A DNA stretch of 20,000 bases from an uncultured virus (IMG/VR IMGVR_UViG_3300009431_000005) (lineage: Duplodnaviria; Heunggongvirae; Uroviricota; Caudoviricetes), in IMG/VR virus record IMGVR_UViG_3300009431_000005; one strand, given 5' to 3'. The notes under the pieces are model-generated. The model had not been told where the DNA came from and ran no database searches. It saw nothing but the letters and a program-made list of their open reading frames with translations. Of the stretch, positions 6,128-19,827 are shown piece after piece. Position numbers and translations under genes: made by a program. Each line of letters starts with the position of its first letter. Positions within the stretch are counted from its first letter, which is position 1.

Positions 6128-7363
6128 CTAGTCGAGATCCGCGTCGGGCGTGTGCTTGGCGGCTTCCGCCTTGACCACGGCCATGAACGCAGCCAGCTCC
6201 TTCTGCAGCTTCGCGTACGACGGGTCGCCCTTGTCCGGAGTCAGCTCCGGAGCCACCGGGTCGTCCAGGTCGCCGCGATCCCACAGCGAGTAGGCGATCG
6301 CCCCGAGCAGCTCGTGGTACTCGGTCGAGCCCACGTCGCTCGCGTCGGTGTGCCCCAGCTCGTAGCACATGCGCTGGAGCATCGTCTGCTTCTCGGTCGA
6401 GGAGCGCCACGCGGTGAGGGACCGCTTCGGGTCCTTGCCCTTGGCCGTCTTCTGCGGCTCACCCTTCGCGGCGGCCTTCGCCTTCGTCTCCGTCTCGGCC
6501 GCCTTGCGCAGCTTGCGGATCTCGGGCGCGGTCGTGCTCGCGCTGATCTCACCCGCGAGCTTCTTCCGCATGGCCGGAGTGAGCTTGGCGACCTCCAGCC
6601 CGGCGTCGACGGACATCGTGCCCTTCGAGATGCGCTCCCGCACGTCGGTAGGCGTCTCCATCAGCTTGAGCGCACGGCGGACGCGGGCGATGTTGAGGCC
6701 GGTCTCCCGAGCGATGTGCGCAGGGAGCCACTCCTTCTTCGTGAGCTTCGCCACGACCCCGCCGATCTCCAGCATCGTGAGATTCGTGCGGCCGTCCTCG
6801 GAGTTCTCCGCAACGGCCACGGCGAGGGAACGCTCGTTGTCGCCCACGAGGTCGGTGCGCACCGTGCAGAGCACCGGGTCCTTGTAGCCGAGCTTCTTCA
6901 GCGCGAGATACCGACGCTCACCCGCGACGATCTCGTACTTCCCGGCGGCCTTCGCCGGTCGCACCACGAGCGAGGAGAGCAGACCCTCAGCCTTGATCGA
7001 GGCCATCAGGTCGTCGATGTCCCCCGGCGTCCCGCGCGGGTTGAACCCGGGGATGACAGCGAGCTGCTTCAGGTCGAGCGCAGCGGCGGTGCCTCGCTTC
7101 TTCGACGCGCCCAGGCGCAGCTCGGGATCGCCGGGCTTGCCCTTCGGCATCGAAGGCGGAGCGGCGGCAGTCCGCGCGGCGGCACCGGCCTTCTTCGTGA
7201 CCTTCTTCTTGGTGCTCGCCTTCTTGCGCGTCGCGCCGGTCTTCTTCGTGACCTTCTTCTTGCGCGTCGTAGTCCCCCCGGTCTTCCGGGAGGTGGTCTT
7301 CTTCTTGCCGACCTTCTTCTTGGTCGTCCGCTTTTTGCGGTTGGCGGTTGCGGTTGCAGACAC
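6128..7363 (-). CDS. parB: ParB/Spo0J-family CTPase-fold DNA-binding protein with histone-H1-like N-terminal tail
   Basis: NPR...IDDLMASIKAEGLL..LVVR...YEIVAGERRYLAL (ParB GxRR motif), AENSEDGRTNL, then an HTH (PAHIARETGLNIARVRRAL). AGGAGG RBS before the GTG start. Confidence 0.9.
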   Translation of the reverse strand: MSATATANRKKRTTKKKVGKKKTTSRKTGGTTTRKKKVTKKTGATRKKASTKKKVTKKAGAAARTAAAPPSMPKGKPGDPELRLGASKKRGTAAALDLKQLAVIPGFNPRGTPGDIDDLMASIKAEGLLSSLVVRPAKAAGKYEIVAGERRYLALKKLGYKDPVLCTVRTDLVGDNERSLAVAVAENSEDGRTNLTMLEIGGVVAKLTKKEWLPAHIARETGLNIARVRRALKLMETPTDVRERISKGTMSVDAGLEVAKLTPAMRKKLAGEISASTTAPEIRKLRKAAETETKAKAAAKGEPQKTAKGKDPKRSLTAWRSSTEKQTMLQRMCYELGHTDASDVGSTEYHELLGAIAYSLWDRGDLDDPVAPELTPDKGDPSYAKLQKELAAFMAVVKAEAAKHTPDADLD

Positions 7364-7420
7364 GGGGGCCTCCTGGGGCTATCGGTTCCTAGTCGTAGCG
7401 AGGGCCGGGCGGCCCCCGGT

Positions 7421-7456
7421 GCCGCTGAAGTTACCTCCAGCGGCGAGAGCGGTCAA
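7421..7456 (-). promoter_or_regulatory. Sigma70-type promoter for parB with overlapping palindrome
   Basis: TTGACC (7456-7451), 17 bp, TAACTT (7433-7428); GCCGCTGGAG-GTAA-CTTCAGCGGC inverted repeat over the -10 box. Confidence 0.6.
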
Positions 7457-7462
7457 CGCGGG

Positions 7463-8656
7463 TCAGGGCTCTTCGTCGTCCCCTTCCTCCATCTCCAGGA
7501 GCGCCCTCGCGCCCCCGGCCTTGACGACCTCCAAATACGCGCCCTGGGCGGCCTCCCGGAACTCCGGGTCCTCCTCCCACAGCGCGATCCAGGCGTCGCC
7601 CTTCTCGAACTTCCGGCCCCCGGCCCAGGATCCGGTGTACTTCCCCCCGCCCGTCGATCGGATCCGGTTCGCGTCCTTGAGGACGTGCCAGACCGTCAGG
7701 ATCGGCGAGGGGCCGTGCTTGAAGTCCAAGTACCACGTCGCCTTCTGATGCGGCGGCGCGCACTTGTTCTTCTTCGTCGTCGTCAGGATCAGGTAGCCGC
7801 ACGCCGGGCCGGACGTGCCGCCCTTCTTGACGGTCGAGACGCGGACGCAACGGACGCGCAGGGAGAAGGCGTACTTCGCCGCCTTGCCTCCGGTCGTCTG
7901 CAGCTCGGGTCCTCCGAAGCCGCCGAAGCCCCCGAGCTTCATCCTCTCCTGATTCACGAGGATGACGTGCGCGCGGGCGCGAGCGATCTTCTTGAACAGC
8001 TTACCGCACTGAGAGGACAGCACGCGGGCCTTCGCCGCGACGTGCGAGTCCTCCGAGGACTTCTCATCGACCTCCACCTTCGCGGGGGACGCTCCAACGG
8101 AGTCCCACACGATCAGCGTCGGGTGCTCGGGCGGCTTCTCGATCAGCCGGTCGAGCATCTTGAAGACGACGTCGAACCCTTGCTCCATGTGGTCCGGACA
8201 GACGTACACGAGCTTCTCAGGGTCGATGCCAAGCTGCAGTAGCGTCTTCTTCTCCAGCGCGTGCTCATAGTCGAGGTACACCGCTGTCCCACCCATCCGC
8301 TGACACTCGCGGATCGCAACGTGAGTCAGGGCGGACTTCCCCGAGCCCTCTGCGCCGAAGACCTCGCTGACCCGTCCGACAGGCCAGCCGTTGCCGAAGA
8401 CCTCGTCGATGCCAGCGAAGCCCGTCGGGATCCACTCCACGACATCCGCCAGCGTCTCCGCGTCCTCGGCTCGAAAGACCTCCGCGCCCTTCACGGACCC
8501 GGCGGCCTCGATCAACTCCATCGTGAAGTCGGGGCTGCCCCCCGCCTTCTTCCGGCGGGAGGCACCCTTCTTCCTGGTGACCTTCTTCTTGGTCTTACGC
8601 TTTGCCCTTTTTGCGGCGGACTTTTTTCTTCCGCGCAGGCTGTCCTTGAGACCCAC
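7463..8656 (-). CDS. recA: RecA/UvsX-family recombinase
   Basis: IPTGFAGIDEVFG.GWPVGRVSEVFG, Walker A GAEGSGKS, YLDYEHAL, Walker B IVWDSV, VNQER, TTGGKA.KY..SLR. Start placed at GTG 8656 after GGAGG. Confidence 0.93.
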   Translation of the reverse strand: MGLKDSLRGRKKSAAKRAKRKTKKKVTRKKGASRRKKAGGSPDFTMELIEAAGSVKGAEVFRAEDAETLADVVEWIPTGFAGIDEVFGNGWPVGRVSEVFGAEGSGKSALTHVAIRECQRMGGTAVYLDYEHALEKKTLLQLGIDPEKLVYVCPDHMEQGFDVVFKMLDRLIEKPPEHPTLIVWDSVGASPAKVEVDEKSSEDSHVAAKARVLSSQCGKLFKKIARARAHVILVNQERMKLGGFGGFGGPELQTTGGKAAKYAFSLRVRCVRVSTVKKGGTSGPACGYLILTTTKKNKCAPPHQKATWYLDFKHGPSPILTVWHVLKDANRIRSTGGGKYTGSWAGGRKFEKGDAWIALWEEDPEFREAAQGAYLEVVKAGGARALLEMEEGDDEEP

Positions 8657-8924
8657 TGGAGCCCTCCAGGTACGCAACCAAGGCTTCTACGTCACCATCA
8701 GACCCGAGTGCGTCGTAGCACTCGTTCGTCGCTTGCAGGTTCCGGAGCATGGACTCGCGGAACATCACGTCGAGGTCGGCCTGCATCTGCTCGATGTCCG
8801 CCTCGGGGTCGTCGCCGACCACTCGCGTCAGGGACACGAAGCCAGCGACCGAGGAGAACTGCGTCAGAAAGACCTTGCCCTCGCGGGACAGGCTCACCGA
8901 GTCGCCGGGTTTCAGCGTAGGCAT
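8595..8924 (-). CDS. Hypothetical protein (109 aa) with basic C-terminal tail
   Basis: ORF between ssb and recA; ends in RKKKVRRKKGKA. Confidence 0.7.
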   Translation of the reverse strand: MPTLKPGDSVSLSREGKVFLTQFSSVAGFVSLTRVVGDDPEADIEQMQADLDVMFRESMLRNLQATNECYDALGSDGDVEALVAYLEGSSGSQGQPARKKKVRRKKGKA

Positions 8925-8940
8925 CGCTCACCCCCAGGGG

Positions 8941-10116
8941 TTACTTACCCTTGCCGGAGACCCGACTCTTGATCGAGGCTGCCGCACCCTTCGGCTTGCG
9001 AGGGGTCGTCTTCTTGGCCGTCTTCTTCGCGGTCTTCTTGGCCGTCTTCTTCTTGGAGGTCTTCTTGCGCGCGGGGGCAGGAGCCGGTTCGGGCTCCTCT
9101 TCCTCCTCGTCCTCCTCCTCGACGACCTCACACTCGCTGATCGGGATGCACCACGGCTCGTCCGGGTCCTCACCCTCCTCAACGATCAGGAGGCACGAGT
9201 CGTCTTCGTCGTCGTAGCCAGTGACCTCGCCGACGACCTCGTTCTCATCGTCGTCCTTGAACGTCACGACCTTGCCGACCCACTCGTCCTCCTCGGCTTC
9301 CTCCTCTCCTTCTTCAGCCTCGGCGTCGGGGTCGGGCTCCTCTTCCTCCCCGGTCTCGGCCGCCGGTTCTTCGGCAGCGTCGTCGGACGAGGTTCCGAGA
9401 TCGCCAGCCTTCACGGCCTCGACCATCTTCTTGTAGCGCGCGGGGAACTTGGTCTCGCCCGTCAGCCCTTCATAGATGGCGAGCAGAGCCTCCAGATCCA
9501 CGGCGAAGAAGTGGTCGCGCACCGAGAAGCGGCCCGCGAGGTCGACCCACGCTTCGGCCAGCTCGTCGTCTTCCGAGATCGGACAGGGGTCGAGCTTGTG
9601 GACGTCCCAAACCGTGTCGAGTTGGGCGCCCGTCTTCTTGACGAGGAGATCCCGACCCTCCAGGGGATCGGTGATGTCCTCGCCCACGTCGTCGTCGAGC
9701 ATCATCTTGACGACGGCTTGGTACACGGAGTGCTTGCCCCGCAGGATCCGGACGTTCGGCGTCTCGGCCGTCCCTTCTTCGGCGCGGTCGATCACCGGGA
9801 TCCAGTATTCCACGGAGCGACGGACGAAGGACTTGGCGAAGTCCTTGTCCTCCTTGCTGCCCTCCCGGTACAGGCGATCGAGGTAGTCGAACACCGGGCA
9901 GGGAAGGCCGAACGCTCGGGGCGAAGTCGTGCCCTTGTTGAGCGGCTTGCTGAACATCGCCGGGTACTCGATCCCCGGCAGCTCGTCCTCGGGCGGCGGC
10001 AGGATGCGAATCTGCATCTTGCTGAAGGTCTTGTTGTTGATCCTCAGCCCGCCACGTTCCATGCGCTTCTGCTGGCCGAGCAGCTTGTCCCGCATGGCCT
10101 GGGAGATTTTCGGCAT
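8941..10116 (-). CDS. T4 gp32-like single-stranded DNA-binding protein with acidic and basic extensions
   Basis: IRILPP, CPV, Y.IPVIDR, V.IL, DITDPLEGRDLLVKKTG...T.W pattern of gp32-like phage SSBs; located next to recA. Confidence 0.78.
   Translation of the reverse strand: MPKISQAMRDKLLGQQKRMERGGLRINNKTFSKMQIRILPPPEDELPGIEYPAMFSKPLNKGTTSPRAFGLPCPVFDYLDRLYREGSKEDKDFAKSFVRRSVEYWIPVIDRAEEGTAETPNVRILRGKHSVYQAVVKMMLDDDVGEDITDPLEGRDLLVKKTGAQLDTVWDVHKLDPCPISEDDELAEAWVDLAGRFSVRDHFFAVDLEALLAIYEGLTGETKFPARYKKMVEAVKAGDLGTSSDDAAEEPAAETGEEEEPDPDAEAEEGEEEAEEDEWVGKVVTFKDDDENEVVGEVTGYDDEDDSCLLIVEEGEDPDEPWCIPISECEVVEEEDEEEEEPEPAPAPARKKTSKKKTAKKTAKKTAKKTTPRKPKGAAASIKSRVSGKGK
9008..9066 (-). repeat. Degenerate 12-nt tandem repeat encoding (KKTA)n
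   Basis: GTCTTCTTGGCC / GTCTTCTTCGCG / GTCTTCTTGGCC units inside the SSB tail. Confidence 0.8.
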
Positions 10117-10186
10117 GTCAATCAGTCCTCAGCTCGTCTTGGTTTTCAGGTTTCGGATTGCGCCTTCGTCGGGGCGGTGGTGCGGC

Positions 10187-10684
10187 TCAGCCGCTAGGTG
10201 CCCACTGCTTCGGCGCGAGCAGCCGCTGCAGGATGCGTGCCCTGTGGTCCAGGGCATCCCGTAGCGACCGCAGCACAGCATACTGCCTGCGCAGTCGGTC
10301 CAGCCTCTCTTTCTCGGAATTCAGCTCCGGGAGGATGTCCAGCCGCGCCCGGATATTGGCCTCCGTGGGAACGTCGGTGGTGTGCTCGTCGATGTAGCGC
10401 CTCTGGAGGACGTACGCCTCGCCTTCTTGCGTCGCCACGACCCGCTCTCCGACCCTCAGCGCGTGCAGCGCACGCTCCGTCTGGTACGACCAAAACGCGA
10501 GACGGGCAGGCGCGGTCCGGGCCTGCTTCCGCAGGATGTCCGGGTCATCGCTGATCGCCAGCTCGTCCGCCATTCGCGCCTTGACGGTTCGCCCGTCCTC
10601 CAGCACGACCTTGATCGCCTCGATGCCCGCGAGGTGGTTCTCGCCGTGCTCGATGCGCTTCTTCCGTCTGACCTTCTTCGCCAT
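10187..10684 (-). CDS. UvsY-like helical recombination mediator (putative)
   Basis: All-helical 165 aa with ELAI.D...L......PA..AFW, PTEANI.A.L and ALDHR..IL..L; directly upstream of ssb and recA. Confidence 0.55.
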   Translation of the reverse strand: MAKKVRRKKRIEHGENHLAGIEAIKVVLEDGRTVKARMADELAISDDPDILRKQARTAPARLAFWSYQTERALHALRVGERVVATQEGEAYVLQRRYIDEHTTDVPTEANIRARLDILPELNSEKERLDRLRRQYAVLRSLRDALDHRARILQRLLAPKQWAPSG

Positions 10685-11205
10685 CAGAAAGGCGTCTCCC
10701 CGGTCAGGAAGGGATCAGGTTTGTGCGAGGGGAGTCCATCCCACCCCTCGCGTTTCGCTTGCGCGTCGACCTCGGCCTCTACTCGCAGCCACTCCTCCGG
10801 GTCGTACCCGCAGTAGCCCTGGACGCGGTTCCGGTCGAGGTTGTTCTCCTCGTGCGTCCCCCAGCGCAGGTTACACACGCGGTTGTCCTCCGGGTCGTGG
10901 TTCGGACCGTGCAGCACCTCCGCACCCACGAAGGGCGGCGGCCCAACGTGCGCGAGGAGCACCGCGAGATGCACCGACATCGAAGTCTGCTTCCCTTCCG
11001 CGCGCAGGTTCACGTACGGATAGAGCCCCCGGTACCCGCGACGCGACTGCTTCAGGACGCGCCCCTTGTACCGACGCGGCGCGACCTTCCCGCTCCTCGA
11101 ACGCACCATCTCCGTGCGGTCGACAGAGCGAACGCGGCCGAGCGAGGACGCCTCGTAGCGTCCCGCGAATCCGGGGATGGGCTTCCACAGCTCCTTGTCG
11201 GTCAC
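10684..11205 (-). CDS. NUMOD4-HNH homing endonuclease
   Basis: ELWKPIPGFAGRYEASSLGRVRSVDR (NUMOD4); VHLAV...H...EVLH...DPEDNRVCNLRWGTHEEN (HNH_3). Confidence 0.92.
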   Translation of the reverse strand: MTDKELWKPIPGFAGRYEASSLGRVRSVDRTEMVRSRSGKVAPRRYKGRVLKQSRRGYRGLYPYVNLRAEGKQTSMSVHLAVLLAHVGPPPFVGAEVLHGPNHDPEDNRVCNLRWGTHEENNLDRNRVQGYCGYDPEEWLRVEAEVDAQAKREGWDGLPSHKPDPFLTGETPF

Positions 11206-11390
11206 TTCGAGTCGGTCAGCTTCTCCACCGCAGCCTCGAACCGCTGCAGCTTCTCCTCCAGGATGTGCTCCAGACGCTGCACCTCGCCCGAGATGGTCTG
11301 CGCCGCTCTGTCGATCTGCTCCGCCGCCGACGAGATCGTGCTCGCCGCGCGTCGCACGTCCTCGGACCCCTGCAGGTACACGGACTCCAT
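11202..11390 (-). CDS. Small coiled-coil protein (62 aa)
   Basis: AGGAGG RBS at 11400-11395; MESVYLQGSEDVRRAASTISSAAEQIDRAAQ... heptad pattern; 3' part of ORF 11202..11906. Confidence 0.75.
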   Translation of the reverse strand: MESVYLQGSEDVRRAASTISSAAEQIDRAAQTISGEVQRLEHILEEKLQRFEAAVEKLTDSK

Positions 11391-11398
11391 CACGCCTC

Positions 11399-11689
11399 CT
11401 ATTCGAGCACCCACCGACGGATGCGTCTCGCCGCCCGAACCCACCAACGTCGACGCGGAGCGTGCGTGACCTTCCAACGCAACTGCGTGGCGGTCGGCCC
11501 CTGCATCGGCTGAAGCGGGATCAGGTCCTCGATGAGATTCCCCGGACTCGGGGCCTGGATAATCGGCATCTGGAACTCGCGGAACCCGTCCGCGAGCTGA
11601 CGCCGCGCCTTGCGCCGTAGCCGCCACCGCCTCCAACGGGCTCGTACCCGCCAGATCGGAATGCGCTCGGGCTCTGGACAGAGCGTCAT
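11399..11689 (-). CDS. Small Arg/Trp-rich protein with gp23-capsid-like QPMxGPT segment (96 aa)
   Basis: ATGA overlap with the polymerase stop; PIIQAPSPGNLIEDLIPLQPMQGPT. Confidence 0.6.
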   Translation of the reverse strand: MTLCPEPERIPIWRVRARWRRWRLRRKARRQLADGFREFQMPIIQAPSPGNLIEDLIPLQPMQGPTATQLRWKVTHAPRRRWWVRAARRIRRWVLE

Positions 11690-14565
11690 GCCGCCTCCGC
11701 CATGCGCTCCCACAGCTCGTCGATGTCAAGGTGATCGAGGTCGAGGCCGACGAGCGTCCCCCACGTCGAGCCGACCTCACAGTCGGCGATGATCGGCACC
11801 TGCAGCCAGGACCAGTCGAGGCCCGGCAGCACTTCGTCGGAGAGCTGCGGCAGGTTCTCCATGATCCCCCTCGCCAGCGTCGCCACCTCGATGAACTCGT
11901 CGACATGGCAGTCGAAGATGATCGAGTCGTGGACGGTGAGGATGATCTTGGAGCGCAGGCCGCGCTTCCGCATCTCCCGCCAGATCAGCACGAGGGACAT
12001 GAGCGTCATGTCCGACGCGGTGGACTGGATCGGGAAGTTGATCGCCTGCCGTAGCGCACGGGAGACGATCTGGTCGTCGACGGAGCGCACCTCGGGCACA
12101 CGGCGGCGTCGTCCGGTGAAGGTCTCCAGGAAGCCCACGCGCTTGACGTGCCGCTCCAGCTTGGCGATCCCCGTCCGCAGCGCCGGGCGAACCTTGAAGT
12201 ACCGCTCGATGAGCTTCTGCGCTTCCTCGACGGTGAGGAAGACGCCGTCCTTCTTGAGCGTGTTGACGAGCGCCGGAGGACCACCGCCGTACAGGATCCC
12301 GAAGTTCACCCGCTTGGAGCGTGTGCGCCACGCCTTCTGGTCCTTCGGGTCCAGCGCCTCGTACCCCTCCTTGCCGAGCCCGCTCACGTCGATCGCCGTC
12401 TGCGTGTGAACGTCCGCGCCCGCCTTGTACGCGCGGATCATGCTGGGCTCTTTGAAGACCGAGGCCGCAACGCGCAGCTCGATCTGGCTGTAGTCGGCCT
12501 GAAGGATCAGGCCCTCGTCCCCGAAGCGCGAGACGTATGCGCGCTTCACGCGCCCGCCGTCCTTGTTCGGGATGTTCTGCAGGTTGGGGTTCGCCGACGC
12601 GAGCCGTCCGGTCACGGTGCCGTGCAGGAGGAACTCGCCGTGGAGCAGGCCGAAGGGATCGAGGCGCTCGGACAACGGGCGCACGAAGGTCCCGAGGAGC
12701 GTCTGCGCAGCGCGGTACTCCAGGATCGTGCTCGCCAGCTCGTTCCCGCGACGGTCCAGCTCCTGCAGCACCTCGGCGTCGGTCGAGAAGTGCTGCCACT
12801 CCGCCTTCTCCACCGCGTCGCGCACCACGTCCATGAACTCGGGCGGCTTGCCCTTGCGCTTCTTCGTGTGCGCAGTCTTCCACCGCTTGTACCTGAGCCC
12901 CAAACGATCGAGCCCGCCCTTCGTCAGATGGACGGGCTGCTCGCCGTAGTAGCCTCGGTCGAACAGGACGACTTGAAGCTGCGGCGTGCTGCCGGGGTTG
13001 AATGAGTCGCCCTTCCCAGCCGCCTCGCGGGCCTTGATGAACTTCCGGACCGTCGGCAACTCCTGGATCGCCGTCGCTGCCGCGTCCTGCTCGCCCTGGA
13101 AGTGCTCCTCCAAGTCGGCAGCGACCTCCTGGTCGACCTTCGCACCCTGGAACTCCATATCCGCGAGAACGTCGGAGAGGGCGGGCAGGAACGAGTCCGC
13201 GAGCAGCTCACACTTCTCCGTGAACTCGGGTGACTCGCGCATCGCGCGGTCGACGCGGCAGGTGCAGTCTGCGTCCATCCCCGCGTACCTGAAGATCAGC
13301 TCGCCCGGGATGTTGGAGTACGAGCCGCCGCGATCCGGGTCGCAGTCCGCGTGCGCAGCGATCCAGTCCTCCAACGGCTTCTCGTACCCGCCCATGCCGG
13401 TGTAGGCATACGCGAGCGTCTTCAGCCCGTGGGTGCCGCGCTTCTCGTCGAGGGTCAGGTGCGTCGTCATCGTGTCGCGCACGTTGAGGACCTCGACCTT
13501 GAGCGCAGCGCGGATGTGCTTCGCGTCGAACTTGCTGTTCTGCGCGCGTTTGTCGATCTCGGGGTCAGCGAAGAACTCCGCCAGGGCCGCGATCAGCGCG
13601 GGCCGCTCGTGCTCCTTCTCCCCGCCGATGCGCCACGGCGAGTCCGGGTGGTCGAACGGGACGGTGAAGCCATACCCCTCCTCGTCCGAGAAGCTGAAGC
13701 ACGCGAGCGGGGGGAATTGGTCCTGCCACCAATCGAGAGCGCCCGTCTCCGTGTCGAAGTACACCGGGCGGCCGTTCTCCCTGAACGCCTGTAGCAGCGC
13801 CAGGACATCGTCCAGCTCGGTGAGGGTGAAATACTCCCCGAGCCCGAGCAGCTCCTCGTGCTCGCCCTTCAGGAAGGCGTCAGCGGTGCGCAGCGCCTCG
13901 GCGAAGCGGTCCAGCTCGTGATCGAAGCGGAGGATGTACGCCGGGTGCAGGCAACCGAGCACGCGCAGGTCCGGGAACTCGGGTCGAACGCAGTCGAGCA
14001 GCTTCCCGGTGAAAGAGGTGATCCCCGTCTGCCCGGCCAGGAACTCCAGGCTCCCGTTCCCGAGCGCGACGATCAGGCGCGGCTTCCGTGCGGCGATCTC
14101 GCGTATCAGCTCCGGCGAGCAGGACTTGATCTCGGTCTTGTTGGGGTTCCGATTCCTCGGCGGTCGGCAGCGCACGAGGTTCGTGATTCCCACGCGCCAC
14201 TCGCCGTCCATGAAGGACTCGATCGAGTTCCGTAGCAGCGTCCCCGATCGTCCAACGAAGGGCGTCGCCTTCCGGTCTTCGTCCGCGCCCGGTGCTTCCC
14301 CAACGAAGAGTACGTCGCACTCCGTCCATTCCTCCGAGACGCAGCGCGAAACGACCGTGTGTCCGTCCGGCTCCTTCGCCAGAATCTTGTCGGCGGTGCG
14401 GTGATACTCCCCGCCGCCTAGACAGTCGGGGAAGTCAGCACTCCACGGCAGGAGCGAGCACCAAAAGCAACCGGACTTCGGCTCGACCGTGCCCGGCTCC
14501 ACGAAGGGCCGTGCCGTTGGCAGGCTGCCACTGGCAGACCGCAGTCGAGCTTTGATACCGCTCAC
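11686..14565 (-). CDS. polA: Family A DNA polymerase with N-terminal family-4 uracil-DNA glycosylase and 3'-5' exonuclease domains
   Basis: UDG: CFWC, GEAPGADED, PFVGRSG, TNLVRCRPP.NR.P...EI..C, HPAY. Exo: DTETG, NSKFD, YAGMD. Pol: TVTGRLASANPNLQNIP, DYSQIELR, R..SKRVNFGILYG, NFPIQSTA, VHDS. Confidence 0.96.
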   Translation of the reverse strand: MSGIKARLRSASGSLPTARPFVEPGTVEPKSGCFWCSLLPWSADFPDCLGGGEYHRTADKILAKEPDGHTVVSRCVSEEWTECDVLFVGEAPGADEDRKATPFVGRSGTLLRNSIESFMDGEWRVGITNLVRCRPPRNRNPNKTEIKSCSPELIREIAARKPRLIVALGNGSLEFLAGQTGITSFTGKLLDCVRPEFPDLRVLGCLHPAYILRFDHELDRFAEALRTADAFLKGEHEELLGLGEYFTLTELDDVLALLQAFRENGRPVYFDTETGALDWWQDQFPPLACFSFSDEEGYGFTVPFDHPDSPWRIGGEKEHERPALIAALAEFFADPEIDKRAQNSKFDAKHIRAALKVEVLNVRDTMTTHLTLDEKRGTHGLKTLAYAYTGMGGYEKPLEDWIAAHADCDPDRGGSYSNIPGELIFRYAGMDADCTCRVDRAMRESPEFTEKCELLADSFLPALSDVLADMEFQGAKVDQEVAADLEEHFQGEQDAAATAIQELPTVRKFIKAREAAGKGDSFNPGSTPQLQVVLFDRGYYGEQPVHLTKGGLDRLGLRYKRWKTAHTKKRKGKPPEFMDVVRDAVEKAEWQHFSTDAEVLQELDRRGNELASTILEYRAAQTLLGTFVRPLSERLDPFGLLHGEFLLHGTVTGRLASANPNLQNIPNKDGGRVKRAYVSRFGDEGLILQADYSQIELRVAASVFKEPSMIRAYKAGADVHTQTAIDVSGLGKEGYEALDPKDQKAWRTRSKRVNFGILYGGGPPALVNTLKKDGVFLTVEEAQKLIERYFKVRPALRTGIAKLERHVKRVGFLETFTGRRRRVPEVRSVDDQIVSRALRQAINFPIQSTASDMTLMSLVLIWREMRKRGLRSKIILTVHDSIIFDCHVDEFIEVATLARGIMENLPQLSDEVLPGLDWSWLQVPIIADCEVGSTWGTLVGLDLDHLDIDELWERMAEAA

Positions 14566-14795
14566 CCGACGACCTCTGCCGACTCACGTCTGCGCCAGGG
14601 TTGCTCGTACTCTTCTACGAACGGGGACCCGTGCTGCTTCGGACGTGGTGGCGCGAGGCGATCGAACGGCAAAAGGAACACTCGGTGGGTAGCCGCATAC
14701 GAGTCCCAGCACGCGACGCGAACGTCACAGCTAGAGCACTCTTCGCAGCGTTCCGGTGTTCCGAAGCATTGAGGGAGTCGCGTCTTCCGAGTCAT
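14562..14795 (-). CDS. Small Cys-rich protein (77 aa)
   Basis: CFG....C..C..C.....C; stop overlaps the polymerase GTG (GTGA). Confidence 0.6.
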   Translation of the reverse strand: MTRKTRLPQCFGTPERCEECSSCDVRVACWDSYAATHRVFLLPFDRLAPPRPKQHGSPFVEEYEQPWRRRESAEVVG

Positions 14796-14809
14796 GAGCA
14801 GACAAGCAG

Positions 14810-14853
14810 GCAGGCCACCCCGGTATGTTTCCGAGGTGGCCTGCGCAGGTCAA
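14810..14853 (-). promoter_or_regulatory. Candidate promoter for the polymerase operon with -10 box in the loop of a 14-bp inverted repeat
   Basis: TTGACC (14853-14848), 17 bp, AAACAT (14830-14825); GCAGGCCACCTCGG / CCGGGGTGGCCTGC. Confidence 0.5.
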
Positions 14854-14875
14854 GGATGACCCAAAAAAGTCCCGC

Positions 14876-16597
14876 TCAGGGATTGGGTTCGATGCCGTAG
14901 GCGTCGATCTCCGGGTTCGTGAGGTTGCGAGTGCCCTTCGACATCTTCACACCGGACTGGAAGCCCGAGTGGCCGGAGAGCGGAGCACCCGCCGTCTCGC
15001 GTTCGATCTCGACCGTGCCGTTGTCGATGCCGCCACCCCACGGCGTGTCGAGACAGATCGCGGTGCGATTTCCCTTGATCTCGAAGCCGTCCAGGATCTC
15101 CAGCTTCTCGACGCCGGAGAAGGCCGCATGGTTGCGGTTCGCGTTGGGGTGGTCGCACTTGAAGCCCGAGACGATGACGTGCCGATGGCTGTAGCCGGTC
15201 GGCGTCAGGTACGCGCCGTGACCCTTGTCGGTCCAGGCGACGATCGCGCCGTTCGAGCGGAGCTGTCCGTGCTGCGCACCGTGGCTCTCGCAGTCGACGA
15301 ACGCGGCGAGTCCCCTGCAGCCGACCAGCGTGAAGTCCGAGCCGCCGCCGGAACCCTCGTGGATGCCGCGTGCGATGCAGCGCAGCACGAGGATGTCGCC
15401 GAACTGGCTGGGACCGGACTGCTGCCGGTTGGTCATCTGCAGGAACGTCCGTCCGTTCGAGAGGCCGTCCGCATACGGGAGCACCTCCAGGTCGACGAAG
15501 ACGGAGTCGCCCTGGAAGTTGTCGCCATAGAACGAGTGCTCCTGCGCGGGCTCGAAGGTGACGCGGCGGAGGTCCCACTGCGCGGGTCCGTGCGCGCGAC
15601 ACGCCCACTTCATCCCGTAGCCGCCGTACCCGTTCCGCGACTGCACACCCAGGTGCAGGTCGTACCCGGTGATGAGTCCGACGACGTTGTTCATCGCGGT
15701 CATCAAGGGCGCGTATGCGTGCTGGTTGTTGAAGATCCCGAGACCCTCCAGGCGGAAGCCGTCGACTCCGCCCAGGTTGCCCCAGAAGCTGTACCCGCCG
15801 TGAACGCGAGTCGTGTCCTTGCCTTCGCCGAGCAGCGCGACGTCGCGGATCACGTCCGAGTCGTTCCACGTCGCCGTGAACTGCTTGCCGAGCGAACCCC
15901 CGCCGATCGAGCAGCCGGGATACGGGCGGTCGCCTTTGAGCAGGATCACGTCACCCGGGCGAGCACGTCGAATCGCCTCGGCCTCGGGGTACACGAGCGG
16001 CAGGTGCCACTGGCCGTAGGTGCTGATGACCTGTCCCGTCTCCAGCATCGTGATCTTCCAGTCGCCGGGGCCGTCGCCGGTCGGCTCGATCTCGATGGTC
16101 GGAGTACCGATCGACACCTCCGGCGGAGGCTCGAAGCCGGAGTTTCCGCCGCCGGGCGGGTCGTACGGTCGCCACGGGACGCAACGGCGGTGCTTGCGAG
16201 CCCACCGGATCATCCGCGTGCGAATCTCCGGCGTGACGGTGATCGGACCGCGTCCGGCGATCAGGATCTCCTGGTCGACGCGCGGGAACTTGCAGCCGCC
16301 ACGCGGGCGGATCTCCGTCACCTCCCCGAGCGGTTCGACTTCGTAGTCGACGATGAGACCGCGATCCGTGCGGCCGACTCCGCCTCTCCCGTCCCCCGTG
16401 TCGCTTCCGCGATCGACTTCGCCCTCCTCGCCGCGAGCAGGCTCCGTTTCCGGATCGGGGTCAGTCTCGGGGTCTTCCTCGTGGCCGCCTGGACGACGGC
16501 CCCTGATGAGCTTCTTCAGACTTCGGGCCGACACGCCGATCGAGTCCGCATCCGCAGCGATCTCGTCGAGCGCCTCCCGCACTTCGCGTAGTTGCAT
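14876..16597 (-). CDS. Predicted right-handed parallel beta-helix (pectin-lyase-fold) protein, 573 aa
   Basis: EAIRRARPGDVILLKG...Y cap motif, V.L.GEG...T.V, F.LEGL.I, and Gly/Asn-rich beta repeats. AAGGAG RBS before ATG 16597. Confidence 0.7.
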   Translation of the reverse strand: MQLREVREALDEIAADADSIGVSARSLKKLIRGRRPGGHEEDPETDPDPETEPARGEEGEVDRGSDTGDGRGGVGRTDRGLIVDYEVEPLGEVTEIRPRGGCKFPRVDQEILIAGRGPITVTPEIRTRMIRWARKHRRCVPWRPYDPPGGGNSGFEPPPEVSIGTPTIEIEPTGDGPGDWKITMLETGQVISTYGQWHLPLVYPEAEAIRRARPGDVILLKGDRPYPGCSIGGGSLGKQFTATWNDSDVIRDVALLGEGKDTTRVHGGYSFWGNLGGVDGFRLEGLGIFNNQHAYAPLMTAMNNVVGLITGYDLHLGVQSRNGYGGYGMKWACRAHGPAQWDLRRVTFEPAQEHSFYGDNFQGDSVFVDLEVLPYADGLSNGRTFLQMTNRQQSGPSQFGDILVLRCIARGIHEGSGGGSDFTLVGCRGLAAFVDCESHGAQHGQLRSNGAIVAWTDKGHGAYLTPTGYSHRHVIVSGFKCDHPNANRNHAAFSGVEKLEILDGFEIKGNRTAICLDTPWGGGIDNGTVEIERETAGAPLSGHSGFQSGVKMSKGTRNLTNPEIDAYGIEPNP

Positions 16598-16606
16598 GGC
16601 AATGTT

Positions 16607-16630
16607 CTCCTTGGGAAAGAGGCCAAGGAG
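16607..16630 (-). promoter_or_regulatory. Hairpin occluding the RBS of the beta-helix gene
   Basis: Perfect 8-bp CTCCTTGG/CCAAGGAG; the 3' arm is the Shine-Dalgarno. Confidence 0.6.
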
Positions 16631-16638
16631 GCAGCCTA

Positions 16639-16734
16639 TCAACACGAACGTGCGGCGAGGAAGCACGCGATCGCCAAAAGCGTGACGAGCGTGCCCACGT
16701 ACAGGCGTAGGCGATCCTGGGGCGTCCGGGTCAT
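16639..16734 (-). CDS. Candidate 31-aa single-TM peptide
   Basis: MTRTPQDRLRLYVGTLVTLLAIACFLAARSC*; no clear SD. Confidence 0.4.
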   Translation of the reverse strand: MTRTPQDRLRLYVGTLVTLLAIACFLAARSC

Positions 16735-16759
16735 CGGGGGCGCGGGGGGTCAGATTCCC

Positions 16760-16797
16760 AAAATAGGGGACCGACGGCTCTGCGGGGCCGCCGGTCC
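16760..16797 (-). terminator. Long hairpin, possible minus-strand terminator
   Basis: GGACCGGCGGCCC-CGCA-GAGCCGTCGGTCC followed by CCTATTTT. Confidence 0.4.
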
Positions 16798-16852
16798 AGG
16801 CCCACCCCAGCGGGGGCCGAGAGACAAGGGAACCGTCCTACCTCGGCCGCCC

Positions 16853-16875
16853 CGGGGCCGCAAGCCCCTCTTTTT
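16853..16875 (+). terminator. Short intrinsic terminator-like hairpin
   Basis: GGGGC-CGCAA-GCCCC followed by TCTTTTT. Confidence 0.4.
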
Positions 16876-16901
16876 GCTTTCCCCGGGATCGGTGGTACTG
16901 T
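16874..16901 (+). promoter_or_regulatory. Sigma70-type promoter, plus strand
   Basis: TTGCTT, 16 bp, TACTGT with extended TGn. Confidence 0.5.
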
Positions 16902-16907
16902 GAGGAT

Positions 16908-17110
16908 ACCTACGGGGGACTGAAGCGACCCCGCATGGTTGTGAGGAGCTGAGAGAACCTCCTCTCGTCTTCCTAGACGACGGCCCCCGGGACGACCTCC
17001 TGACGCCCCGGGGGCCACTTTGGTTCCGCCCTTCCCCGGTCTTCCGACCCCTCTGTTCGCCCGGGGTCCGCACACCTACAATGCGCCCCTCAATGTTCCG
17101 AGGCGCGTAG
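16908..17110. ncRNA. Candidate structured RNA / long 5' leader (array of hairpins); strand not established
   Basis: At least six stems: 16913-16933, 16951-16966, 16965-16980, 16982-17016 (perfect 10 bp), 17038-17049, 17081-17108. Five of them carry UCC in or at the loop on +, i.e. GGA on -. Confidence 0.45.
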
Positions 17111-17127
17111 CGTCTCTCAAATAGATA

Positions 17128-17271
17128 ATGGATCACCACTGGAACCTGGAGCCGTCCGAAGCGGTCGCCCAGGAGGAGGTCATCGAGGCGGGTAGCCTGA
17201 ACGACGCCACGCTGGCGGCCATCAACGCGGCCGTCGCTGCGGCCGTCGCGGAGGCCCTGGCTGCCAAGTAG
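17128..17271 (+). CDS. Small acidic, Ala-rich protein (47 aa), only plus-strand gene
   Basis: MDHHWNLEPSEAVAQEEVIEAGSLNDATLAAINAAVAAAVAEALAAK*; strongly GC3-biased codons; followed by a terminator. Confidence 0.65.
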   Translation: MDHHWNLEPSEAVAQEEVIEAGSLNDATLAAINAAVAAAVAEALAAK

Positions 17272-17292
17272 CCGGACCTCAATCTCATCCCG

Positions 17293-17330
17293 AGCCCGGT
17301 CGCCCGACGCGGCGGCCGGGCTTTCTTCGT
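17293..17330 (+). terminator. Intrinsic terminator between the 47-aa ORF and the convergent primase
   Basis: AGCCCGGTCGCC-CGACGC-GGCGGCCGGGCT then TTCTTCGT. Confidence 0.75.
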
Positions 17331-17331
17331 G

Positions 17332-18348
17332 TCAGCGTCCCAGTCGTTGACGAATGCGATCGGCGGTGGACGGGACGCCGCGTCCTTCGAGCAGCATCTC
17401 CAGCTCGTCCCGACGTTCCCACGGGTCGCCCTGGTCGAGTCCGAGCACCGTCACCTCCGGCACGACAGGGAGCAGCGCAGAGTACAGCGCGTCGATCTCC
17501 TTCCCCGCCATGTGGTCGAGTGCGATCACGACCTCCTGCAGTCCCGCCGCGCGCAGGTGCGCGAACAGCCTGACCTGCTCCGGTGAGGCGAACTTCCCGA
17601 GCAGCGCGACCGCGTGCTCGAAGGCCATCATGTCGAACGGTCCCTCGACCACCGCGATGCGTTCGACGCCGAGGCAGTTGTCGTAGTTGAGCAGACACGT
17701 CCCGCGTTGGTGGAAGCCTTCCTCGTTCGGCTCGTTGAGCGACTTCGGGATGCGTTCGTCGTCCGGGTCGTCGCACAGGCGCGTCGTGAAGTACACCTGC
17801 GCGTTCTCCTGGATCACCGGGAACACGAGCCGGTTCCGATACCGCCCCTGCGTGCAGTACCCGATCTGGAAGCGTTCGACGAACTCCCAGGGCACGCCTC
17901 GATCCTCCAGGTACTCCAAGCCCGGACGGAGGCTCGGGGCCTTCAACGTCTTCTTCTCCGCGTCCGCGAGGATCAGGCACGGCAGCGGCAGCTCGCGCGG
18001 CTTCAGATCCGGGAGTGGCTCAGGCGGAGCGAAGACCTCGCGCACCGCACGCGCGACGCTCGTGCGCGGGGGCGTCGTCTCGTCGCGGAGGAGAGCCAGC
18101 TCCTCCATCCGCACGAAGCCACCGTTGAGGTAGCGAAAGAGCTGTCCGAAGCTACCGAAGGCGAAGCCACAGCGGAAGCATCCGCCGACGCGCTTCTGCA
18201 CGTTGATCCCGAGCTTGCGTCCTCGGCTCTCCGTCCCGATGCGGTCGATGCACGCCGGGCAGTTGAACTGGTACTCCGGTCCGCGCCCCGAGTGCGCGCC
18301 CATCCGCTCGTCGAGGTACGCGAGCAGGTTGGTGAGCTTGCGGACCAC
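17332..18348 (-). CDS. DnaG-type (TOPRIM) DNA primase
   Basis: Zn domain CPAC...CFRC, YL..RG, IGYC..G.Y.NRLVFP, YF..R, VVEGPFD, VALLGK, GDP. Confidence 0.9.
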   Translation of the reverse strand: MVRKLTNLLAYLDERMGAHSGRGPEYQFNCPACIDRIGTESRGRKLGINVQKRVGGCFRCGFAFGSFGQLFRYLNGGFVRMEELALLRDETTPPRTSVARAVREVFAPPEPLPDLKPRELPLPCLILADAEKKTLKAPSLRPGLEYLEDRGVPWEFVERFQIGYCTQGRYRNRLVFPVIQENAQVYFTTRLCDDPDDERIPKSLNEPNEEGFHQRGTCLLNYDNCLGVERIAVVEGPFDMMAFEHAVALLGKFASPEQVRLFAHLRAAGLQEVVIALDHMAGKEIDALYSALLPVVPEVTVLGLDQGDPWERRDELEMLLEGRGVPSTADRIRQRLGR

Positions 18349-18351
18349 GAA

Positions 18352-19827
18352 TCACCCCTCGAAGTCCAGCTCCTTCTTGGGCCGGGTGAGCTTCTTCTTC
18401 TTGACCTTCTTCTTGCCCTTCTTCGTGACCTTCTTCTTGCGCGTCAGCCCGACCGACTCCTTGACCGCGTCGACCTTCATCGCGTGCGCCTCGATGTCGC
18501 CGCCGATCCGCGTACCCGCCACGTCGAGAACTCCAGTCGAGGAGATCAGGCAGCAATCCCGTCGGATGTCGCACTCGATCGTCCGGCCGTCCTCAACGTC
18601 CCGTAGCCCGGCAGCAAACAGACGCGCACGACCGTCGATGCGTTCGTCGTCCGTCTGGCAAAAGGCGAAGGCCGCGTCCACGATGGCCGCCTTCTCGAAG
18701 GCTTCCGCGAAGTCCTCGATGGTGATGACCTCCTTCTGCAGCGCGGCCTGCTTCGCCTGCGAGCCCGTCCACACCGCAGCGTCGAACTCGCCAGCGATCG
18801 CGCGCAGGTCCTCGTAGATCCCCGCCTGCTCGTGCCGCATCTCACCGAGCCGCCGCTCCGGCTTCATGATGTCGGCGTAGTCGACGATGATGACGTCGGG
18901 ATAGAACTCGCGCGAGGCCAGGAGTGCGAGGTGCGAGCGCACCGTCGAGATCGTCGCCGAGCGCGTCGGGTACGACTTCACGAAGAGGCGGCCAGGGAGG
19001 AGCTTCGTCGCGCGAGCCTTCAGCTCCTGCACGTACCGTATCGGGTCGCTGCGCTTGTACTTCACGCGCAGCCCCATCAGGCGGTCGTCGTACCGCTGCG
19101 TCACCTTCTGGTCGTTCATCTCCAGCGAGTAGTGGGCGACGTTGAGACCGGACACGTCGCTCAGCGCACCGAAGCCGATGTTGATGAGCGTCGTGCTCTT
19201 GCCGCGCTTCGGCGGTGCCAGGATCACTCCCAGCTCGCCGCGTCCGAGACCTCCCGCGAGAACCGCGTCCAGGTGCTCGATGCCCGTGCGGACGCCGGTA
19301 AACACCTTCTGCGGATCGGTGTACCACACGGCGCGGTCGTCGATGTCGGCCCGGTAGTCAATCCCGATCTCCAGGAGATCCTCACCGACGAGCAGCGCGT
19401 CGTCGATCAGCGGGCGCACGTCGCGGTTGCCCTTATCCAGTCGTCCGGCTGCTTCGACGATCGCGTTGACGAGTGCCTGCTGCTTGCCGAAGGCCACCGC
19501 CTTCTGCATCACGGCGTGCGCGTCCTGAACGTCGTGCCCGTACAGCTCGCCGAGCGCCGACTCGACAGGAGCGAAGTCGTCCTTCCCGACGAGCGGGCGG
19601 ATGTCCTCGATCAGAGTCGGGTGCGTCGGGAGGCGACGCTCTTCGTCGATGTGCGCGAGGAGCGCGCGTGCGATGATCCGGTTCGCGTCAGAGACGAAGA
19701 ACGTGTGGTCGAGTGCCGTGCGGTACCGGATGCAGAATCCCGGCACGCGGCACATCACCGCCAGGATGTGATCCTGGAAGGGAGCGCCGAAGTCCTGGCT
19801 GTAGTTGACCGCCTCCTTCTTCGGCAT
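18352..19827 (-). CDS. DnaB/T4 gp41-like SF4 replicative helicase
   Basis: TGIEHLDAVLAGGLGRGELGVILA, Walker A PPKRGKST, HYSLEM, IIVDYADIM, VWTGSQ. Confidence 0.93.
   Translation of the reverse strand: MPKKEAVNYSQDFGAPFQDHILAVMCRVPGFCIRYRTALDHTFFVSDANRIIARALLAHIDEERRLPTHPTLIEDIRPLVGKDDFAPVESALGELYGHDVQDAHAVMQKAVAFGKQQALVNAIVEAAGRLDKGNRDVRPLIDDALLVGEDLLEIGIDYRADIDDRAVWYTDPQKVFTGVRTGIEHLDAVLAGGLGRGELGVILAPPKRGKSTTLINIGFGALSDVSGLNVAHYSLEMNDQKVTQRYDDRLMGLRVKYKRSDPIRYVQELKARATKLLPGRLFVKSYPTRSATISTVRSHLALLASREFYPDVIIVDYADIMKPERRLGEMRHEQAGIYEDLRAIAGEFDAAVWTGSQAKQAALQKEVITIEDFAEAFEKAAIVDAAFAFCQTDDERIDGRARLFAAGLRDVEDGRTIECDIRRDCCLISSTGVLDVAGTRIGGDIEAHAMKVDAVKESVGLTRKKKVTKKGKKKVKKKKLTRPKKELDFEG
18418..18445. 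repeat. 28-nt perfect direct repeat, second copy at 7241..7268
   Basis: CTTCTTCGTGACCTTCTTCTTGCGCGTC in both the helicase tail and the parB head; encodes TRKKKVTKK. Confidence 0.9.

Follow-up and report, generated by a model that had tools for sequence, protein, structure and literature searches.

Why should so many unrelated proteins of one bacteriophage replication module end in lysine-rich extensions, and is it the wording of these extensions or their charge that has been kept? The question is raised by a 20,000-nt stretch of DNA (the window) from the uncultured caudoviricete virus IMGVR_UViG_3300009431_000005, which lies in a 22.6-kb contig of 66% GC and carries, on its minus strand, a replication module with genes for DnaB helicase, primase, DNA polymerase A (PolA), an HNH nuclease, a 165-aa protein, an SSB (single-stranded DNA-binding protein) of the gp32 type, a small protein designated orf109, RecA, ParB, exonuclease, and SbcD. 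A preliminary description had reported the motif KKKV(T/R)KK at the termini of six of these proteins and had proposed a common zip-code as the best candidate for an undescribed system. We consider it rather probable that the tails are instead disordered polycationic tethers that bind DNA non-specifically and that, within one myovirus clade, are carried by many proteins with a role in DNA handling; the conserved property is charge, not wording.

The phage groups with an uncultured clade of GC-rich myoviruses (53-67% GC), its closer relatives being uncultured myoviruses at 45-69% identity, of which ten records were retrieved, two of them near-complete (156 and 143 kb). Because the first 41 nt of a 48-kb record from the motif scan (G011) match the end of the window's contig exactly, G011 was taken to come from this very phage or from a strain almost identical to it, and "this phage" here means the window's contig plus the G011 continuation, 77 genes in all, called with a purpose-made codon-based caller. 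Nothing further was found beyond G011; a 9.8-kb tail/baseplate contig is tied to this phage by a palindrome, not by overlap. Tails were scored by a fixed rule (a 15-residue stretch, no more than 70 residues from an end, that holds five or more K, seven or more K+R, and at most one D/E), and function labels were taken from PHROG matches on two genomes and transferred by BLAST to the rest, with tape-measure proteins assigned by position.

Applied to 11 records, this rule found tails on 37 of 149 proteins of the DNA class, on none of 82 virion and none of 11 metabolic proteins, and on 36 of 638 unannotated ones, so that the tails are over-represented among DNA-acting proteins and no annotated virion protein has one, which supports this side of the preliminary description. 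Since homologues are non-independent, a count per family was also used, giving tails in 9/19 DNA-handling families versus 0/14 virion families (p 0.004) once a helicase family created by the 20-kb cut had been dropped (10 to 9). The tail/baseplate contig, which bears this phage's palindrome, contains no Lys patch. Among 13 chosen phages, this one included, tails were present on the pre-terminase protein in 6/6, SSB in 8/12, ParB in 6/11, RecA in 5/12, orf109 in 4/11, SbcC in 3/9, and PolA (at the N terminus, in some relatives) in 3/10, and 10 of 11 further SSBs were tailed. From the clade, 97 further helicase clusters were recovered; the C-terminal end is Lys-rich in 70 of these homologues and basic in 79. 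Distant helicases have no Lys-rich C-tail (0/80), and inspection by eye of the homologues in the Herelleviridae phage LysYB1 revealed no comparable tails, which bears out the earlier statement that canonical relatives lack them.

While the tails are kept in position among homologues, the motif is not: the exact form recurs in 1/97 clade helicases, in 0/11 further SSBs, and in 0/15 related records. A short linear docking motif has to be conserved across its orthologues, and this one is unconserved; there is therefore no clade-wide zip-code. The preliminary description had itself named absence from close homologues as telling against its proposal, and such absence was found for the motif, not for the tails. 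In this phage, the strict motif KKKV[TRGK][KR]K is present in four window proteins (helicase, ParB, RecA, and orf109) and one G011 protein, that is, in 5 of 77 called genes, more than chance would give, since none of 300 whole-protein shuffles yielded any, and a scan of the RecA locus with a single sequence gave this phage as its sole match. The word KKKVTKK also occurs in unrelated viruses, in 73 stretches; 9 of 23 scanned proteins had Pfam matches, which include gp32, ParB HTH, topoisomerase IA, UvrD, MuF, and GroEL. Two unrelated phages, G014 (L335:4022-5167) and G015 (L336:16605-17531), carry KKKVTKK tails on a gp32 and a ParB-HTH protein, which suggests independent origins.

Every peptide quoted in the preliminary description lies in frame on the minus strand (as do all features below unless stated) at the terminus claimed for it, and the primase, exonuclease, and SbcD of this phage are indeed without such Lys patches. 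Of the six proteins named, four carry the strict form of the motif; the SSB has KKTA repeats in its place, and the N terminus of the 165-aa protein is worded otherwise. The DnaB-like replicative helicase (491 aa; 18352..19827; Pfam DnaB_C, phrog_19) has a C-terminal tail (18355..18501) with 16 K in 49 aa and two KKKV copies, including the peptide TRKKKVTKKGKKKVKKKK at ~18444-18391. In many helicases (homologues P0017-P0113; 18355-18390 in the window) a Lys-rich linker is followed by a short conserved RPSKKV-like end (PSKK in 19/97), possibly a docking peptide on a basic tether. The ParB-family protein (411 aa; 6128..7363) has a GERR sequence corresponding to the GxRR motif of the ParB N-domain, an HTH, and a ParB/Noc/KorB fold (Foldseek E 1e-10 to Noc and <1e-8 to ParB and KorB). 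Its N-terminal tail (7151..7363) contains 21 K and 6 R with zero D/E in 71 aa and three KKKV copies (at 7324, 7264, and 7213), and in the structural model pLDDT is below 50 across nearly all of residues 1-82, ahead of the fold; an Atlas feature search with this tail as query gave no usable match. The RecA/UvsX-like recombinase (397 aa; 7463..8656) starts at a GTG at 8656, an N terminus that fits the MGLKD/MSLKD of relatives, and its N-terminal tail (8537..8656) has 13 K and 7 R among its 40 residues and contains TKKKVTRKK at 8593. The orf109 product (8595..8924), a beta-hairpin with two helices encoded by a conserved gene (11 phages aligned), gave no clear match in fold searches (best Z 5.3; viral E at least 0.03) and ends in the C-terminal tail RKKKVRRKKGKA, with RKKKVRRKK at 8633 and a predicted pLDDT of 46-54 in the tail blocks. 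Both tails that were modelled, those of ParB and orf109, are predicted to be disordered.

The other basic segments of this phage are more varied. The 165-aa protein begins with MAKKVRRKKR (10643..10684; AKKVRRKK at 10681), an N terminus that is Lys-rich in 0/11 homologues; its name, "UvsY-like", was a label of the preliminary description, to which the profile search lent no support, giving just a weak match to a family of unknown function. PolA has an internal basic patch (12844..12897). Further tailed proteins are SbcC, just beyond the window, a 174-aa protein with KKKVVKKKK, a ParB-methyltransferase, and the pre-terminase protein, whose tail contains KKKVTK three times. A conserved gene of 216-268 aa directly 5' of the large terminase (L331:1210-1941 and homologues) has no family match and a Lys tail in 7/7 cases examined, and is a candidate small terminase.

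Selection for lysine is seen where two tails share their DNA. The tails of orf109 and RecA had been counted as separate; both are present, but they are one DNA segment (8595..8656) read in two frames, with lysine kept in both. The frame offset of this overlap is identical in 10/10 phages, with a length of 62-191 nt (two RecA starts being approximate). The null distribution was generated by synonymous recoding of the partner frame. Ordinary codon choice for RecA would leave the orf109 frame neutral or acidic and often interrupted by stops, and the net charge of orf109 exceeds the null at P <= 0.001 in 6/8 phages (the remaining two gave 0.026 and 0.11); in the RecA frame, net charge is accounted for by the orf109 frame, and the lysine count is 2- to 10-fold over the null. 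Given this excess of charge or lysine in both frames, lysine is held at the protein level in both, and the tails are under protein-level selection.

If charge is kept and wording is not, the wording shared within this phage needs another account. For the comparison of tails within and between phages, 64 tails were used, the 13 phages being cut to the 11 with at least 3 tails and near-duplicate and short records being excluded. Compositional likeness was 0.882 for unrelated tails of one phage, 0.861 for orthologous tails, and 0.847 for unrelated tails of different phages (permutation p < 0.001), an effect that persists inside GC bins, when K/R are disregarded, and when this phage is omitted; every phage carries its own tail "dialect", mostly compositional. 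In this phage, KKKV is found in 6/10 tails (p 0.001 relative to shuffles within tails, with look-elsewhere allowed for; 0.015-0.035 for the window's contig alone); the p-value of 0.001 is optimistic, since the phage was picked for its motif and a motif search is what brought up the pre-terminase copy. Elsewhere, ordered sharing is significant in 1/11 phages (G006, p 0.009 uncorrected), and with this phage omitted ordered sharing beyond composition is not significant (p 0.10-0.32 unstratified, 0.04-0.15 GC-stratified). Tail charge co-varies between the proteins of a phage (rho 0.83; contrasts, from which L140 is omitted as it has no ParB, r 0.70, p 0.017, same sign in 6/10) and shows no correlation with GC (rho 0.16).

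At the DNA level, a 28-nt stretch encoding TRKKKVTKK in the helicase tail (18418..18445) is identical in the ParB tail (7241-7268), and the helicase/ParB tail repeats (28 nt, and 23 nt for a second copy in ParB) are the contig's only dispersed exact repeats of at least 20 nt; the pre-terminase and helicase tails match at 82% over 79 nt, and the Val codon of KKKV is GTC in 11/11 copies versus 33/55 elsewhere among Lys-Val pairs. This evidence is modest and suggests gene conversion or exchange among tails.

The SSB is a 391-aa protein (8941..10116; phrog_1192) consisting of a core, an acidic linker, a small barrel, an acidic run, and a basic tail, and its core is homologous to T4 gp32 (profile E 1e-8; 1gpc, 8gme). 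The acidic region (9079..9396) has a net charge of -48 and contains a predicted SH3/Tudor-like beta-barrel (residues ~275-335, ~9112-9294), whose Atlas structure matches have TM scores of 0.61-0.70, every one below the naming bar; the barrel is seen in most of 23 aligned homologues, with an acidic tract in its place in L136. The C-terminal tail (8944..9078), of net charge +19 and with KKTA repeats (9054-9030), finishes in a semi-conserved ASIKSRV segment. A charge match between the tails and SSB acidity was considered and found to be unsupported (rho 0.23, p 0.49, n 11). Words of the form hydrophobic-[KR]-x-[KR]-hydrophobic (IKSRV, IRQRL, IKARL), noticed post hoc, recur at the C-terminal ends of SSB (13/24 versus 1.9 shuffled) and primase (9/16 versus 1.4) and, more weakly, at the N-terminal ends of PolA and RecA, and LK[DQ]RA in G001 and LK[DT]KA in G002 recur across RecA, PolA, and helicase; these words are a lead only, as they fit a generic amphipathic helix and similar ones terminate distant helicases.

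As a mechanism, we propose that the lysine-repeat tails would grip the DNA backbone without sequence specificity and that this binding may lengthen residence and raise processivity. As so many proteins bear tails, the replisome would be concentrated on phage DNA, helicase, SSB, RecA, ParB, SbcC, polymerase, methyltransferases, and the pre-terminase protein being gathered where that DNA replicates, while the wording shared within a phage would most likely stem from AAG-rich tails that slip and exchange DNA with one another. Several observations weigh against this account: (i) plain tethering leaves the co-variation of tail charge across proteins unexplained; (ii) some DNA enzymes are tail-less at their termini (exonuclease 0/9, SbcD 0/9, primase 1/11), and tails are weak in the clade members G003, G004, G007, and L008; (iii) the 36 unannotated tailed proteins include a GroES and the product of a gene flanked by those for capsid and adaptor; and (iv) with regard to DNA exchange, the GTC bias is at about p 0.05 on 6 independent genes, the mean longest shared DNA exceeds the recoded null in 3/6 phages, and sharing at the DNA level is clear here only. 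The GroES in question, with its Lys-rich C-terminal end, is that of G002 (L098:4789-5220).

The co-variation of charge would be expected if condensation were the selected function, the polycationic tails joining with phage DNA and the SSB's polyanionic linker in a replication compartment resembling a coacervate, for which ParB at the dispersed palindromes may provide the nucleus, a doubtful proposal that extends tethering and does not exclude it. The polyampholytic SSB (acidic region -48, tail +19), the ParB-family fold together with phage-specific dispersed palindromes in the clade, and the precedent of shell-less phage replication compartments such as that of SPP1 (PMC10311714) are consistent with condensation; on the other hand, SSB acidity is uncorrelated with tail charge, and primase and exonuclease, which would be expected inside the compartment, have no tails. 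The dialects could also be understood, in the sense of the zip-code of the preliminary description, as a phage-specific address that is read by a receptor of the phage, for example the acidic SH3/Tudor-like SSB barrel, with which the tags would co-evolve. The frequency of KKKV in this phage, the closer likeness of unrelated tails within a phage than of orthologous tails between phages, and the presence of a Tudor/SH3-like barrel in most aligned SSBs speak for such an address, which we nevertheless regard as improbable: ordered sharing reaches significance in only one of the 11 other phages and the dialects are mostly compositional, the phage was chosen for its motif, the barrel matches lie below the naming bar and L136 has replaced the barrel by an acidic tract, and the use of the same synonymous codons indicates copying of DNA. 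A fuller version, resembling a histone code, in which each phage's basic dialect is read by its acidic Tudor/SH3-like barrel and the tags are kept alike by gene conversion, is to be thought of as similarly unlikely; if true, it would mean that cognate enzymes are recruited into a ParB-nucleated DNA compartment from which host and competitor enzymes are excluded.

A quite improbable alternative needs no function at all, the disordered ends simply drifting towards lysine-rich repeats like those of host proteins, as a neutral or host-lineage compositional habit. That KKKVTKK turns up often among viruses as a low-complexity word (the 73 stretches) and that the K/R balance of tails partly tracks the proteome fits this explanation, against which the virion proteins and the overlap speak: none of 82 virion proteins is tailed and the tail/baseplate contig has no Lys patch, while lysine is retained against codon bias in the overlap. 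Tail charge, moreover, does not follow GC, and a search for the GC-coded word in 201 genomes of Pseudomonadota and 201 of Actinomycetota, phyla which may not be those of the host, gave no match. Disordered, charge-based tethering of DNA-handling proteins is, in our judgment, the reading that the distribution and the overlap favour.

The dispersed palindrome of this phage, TGGCAGSCTGCCA, occurs in the window at 14518..14530 (no strand assigned) and has 5 further copies in G011 and 1 in L344, at positions including L331:1180 and 17460, L332:6640 and 13613, and L333:6648. Each clade phage (G001-G010, L136, L142) has its own, mostly intergenic, dispersed palindrome of one family, for example TGACA-N3-TGTCA x17 in G001, TTGAC-N5-GTCAA x27 in G006, TTTAC-N5-GTAAA x17 in G007, and TGGAC-N5-GTCCA x5 in G002; the TGAC-N5-GTCA of relatives is not found in the window, this phage having a variant. 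These palindromes are candidate parS-like ParB sites or operators.

Other genes of the phage and its relatives complete the setting. PolA (11686-14565) has a domain of the uracil-DNA-glycosylase superfamily at its N terminus, and between primase and PolA sits a gene of 573-596 aa (14876-16666) that was not found in the seven closest relatives; Pfam and PHROG gave nothing for it, and its just 3 distant homologues, one with PF13229, have uninformative names. This phage also encodes a Ro60/TROVE-like protein (L331:7436-9037), an HU/IHF-like protein (L331:5872-6333), possibly a second one recognized by eye (L331:878-1216), and a NUDIX-domain protein of 2234 aa (L332:10536-17240). Large insertions, probably inteins, are present in the G002 RecA (L251:1683-3740) and the L142 helicase (L142:9980-12508). 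A tRNA search of 28 loci returned none, one tmRNA being found in G004 (L109:13256-13628), and a prophage search among species genomes returned nothing close (best 29-33%).

How new is such a system? The best annotated helicase matches are in the Herelleviridae (SPO1-like; LysYB1, CP-51; 36-39% identity), which have a similar module order (PolA - small gene - SSB - RecA - exonuclease), and the relatives of this phage have contractile-tail genes; unlike LysYB1, which has no comparable Lys-repeat tails, the present clade (53-67% GC) has them, together with ParB and orf109 in the module. T4 gp32 and bacterial SSB possess an acidic C-terminal tail that serves as a hub. The phage SSB resembles them in its gp32-type core followed by an acidic disordered region and differs in its added small barrel and basic end, while the basic tails of the potential clients have no conserved sequence. 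The C-terminal domain of linker histone H1 is K/A/T/P-rich, polycationic, and predicted to be disordered. Our tails resemble it in composition, and no Pfam match to the winged-helix globular domain of H1 was found among the 23 window proteins.

The closest parallel is offered by the lysine repeats of actinobacteria (Streptomyces TopA, HupS, FtsK, and HrdB; mycobacterial HupB and Ku PAKKA tails), which are likewise Lys-rich low-complexity ends on unrelated DNA-acting proteins of a GC-rich genome, over-represented in DNA-binding proteins and not found on homologues elsewhere. Altogether 554 lysine-repeat proteins, 175 of them DNA-binding, were counted in 22 Streptomyces proteomes, and DNA binding by the C-terminal domain of Streptomyces TopA was lost once the repeats had been removed (PMC5714199); lysine-repeat sequences, such as that of Ku, arose repeatedly on unrelated DNA-binding proteins (PMC3553676); and DNA-binding categories are enriched in Lys-rich low-complexity regions across prokaryotes (PMC6821194). 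Lysine repeats on many unrelated DNA-binding proteins of one organism are thus already on record in GC-rich bacteria. The phage tails are, in the same way, low-complexity Lys-rich terminal extensions beyond a conserved core. They differ from the actinobacterial repeats in the proteins that bear them (helicase, SSB, RecA, ParB, SbcC, PolA, and the pre-terminase protein) and in their wording, the repeats being Ala-rich and the tails of this phage Thr/Val-rich, with phage-specific dialects and one dual-coded pair. The Ala spacers for which PMC5714199 gives filters of at least 10% or 27% are not a feature of the tails, Ala amounting to 7% here and 6-17% in relatives (pooled content only). A literature search found no paper on Lys-rich tails across phage replication proteins, most subscription papers lying outside its coverage. 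The tails are best read as functioning like bacterial lysine repeats while standing outside the Ala-rich family itself, and as newly seen across a phage DNA-metabolism set.

To conclude, the tails bear on the open question of how phages that build no protein shell bring their replication machinery together on the viral DNA. The clade provides a natural test set, in which the tails of the same enzymes range from strong through weak to absent and differ in dialect. On the reading preferred here, the lysine-repeat principle known from bacteria would extend to much of a viral replisome, with direct signs of selection, in the dual-coded tails, and of concerted change among unrelated genes.

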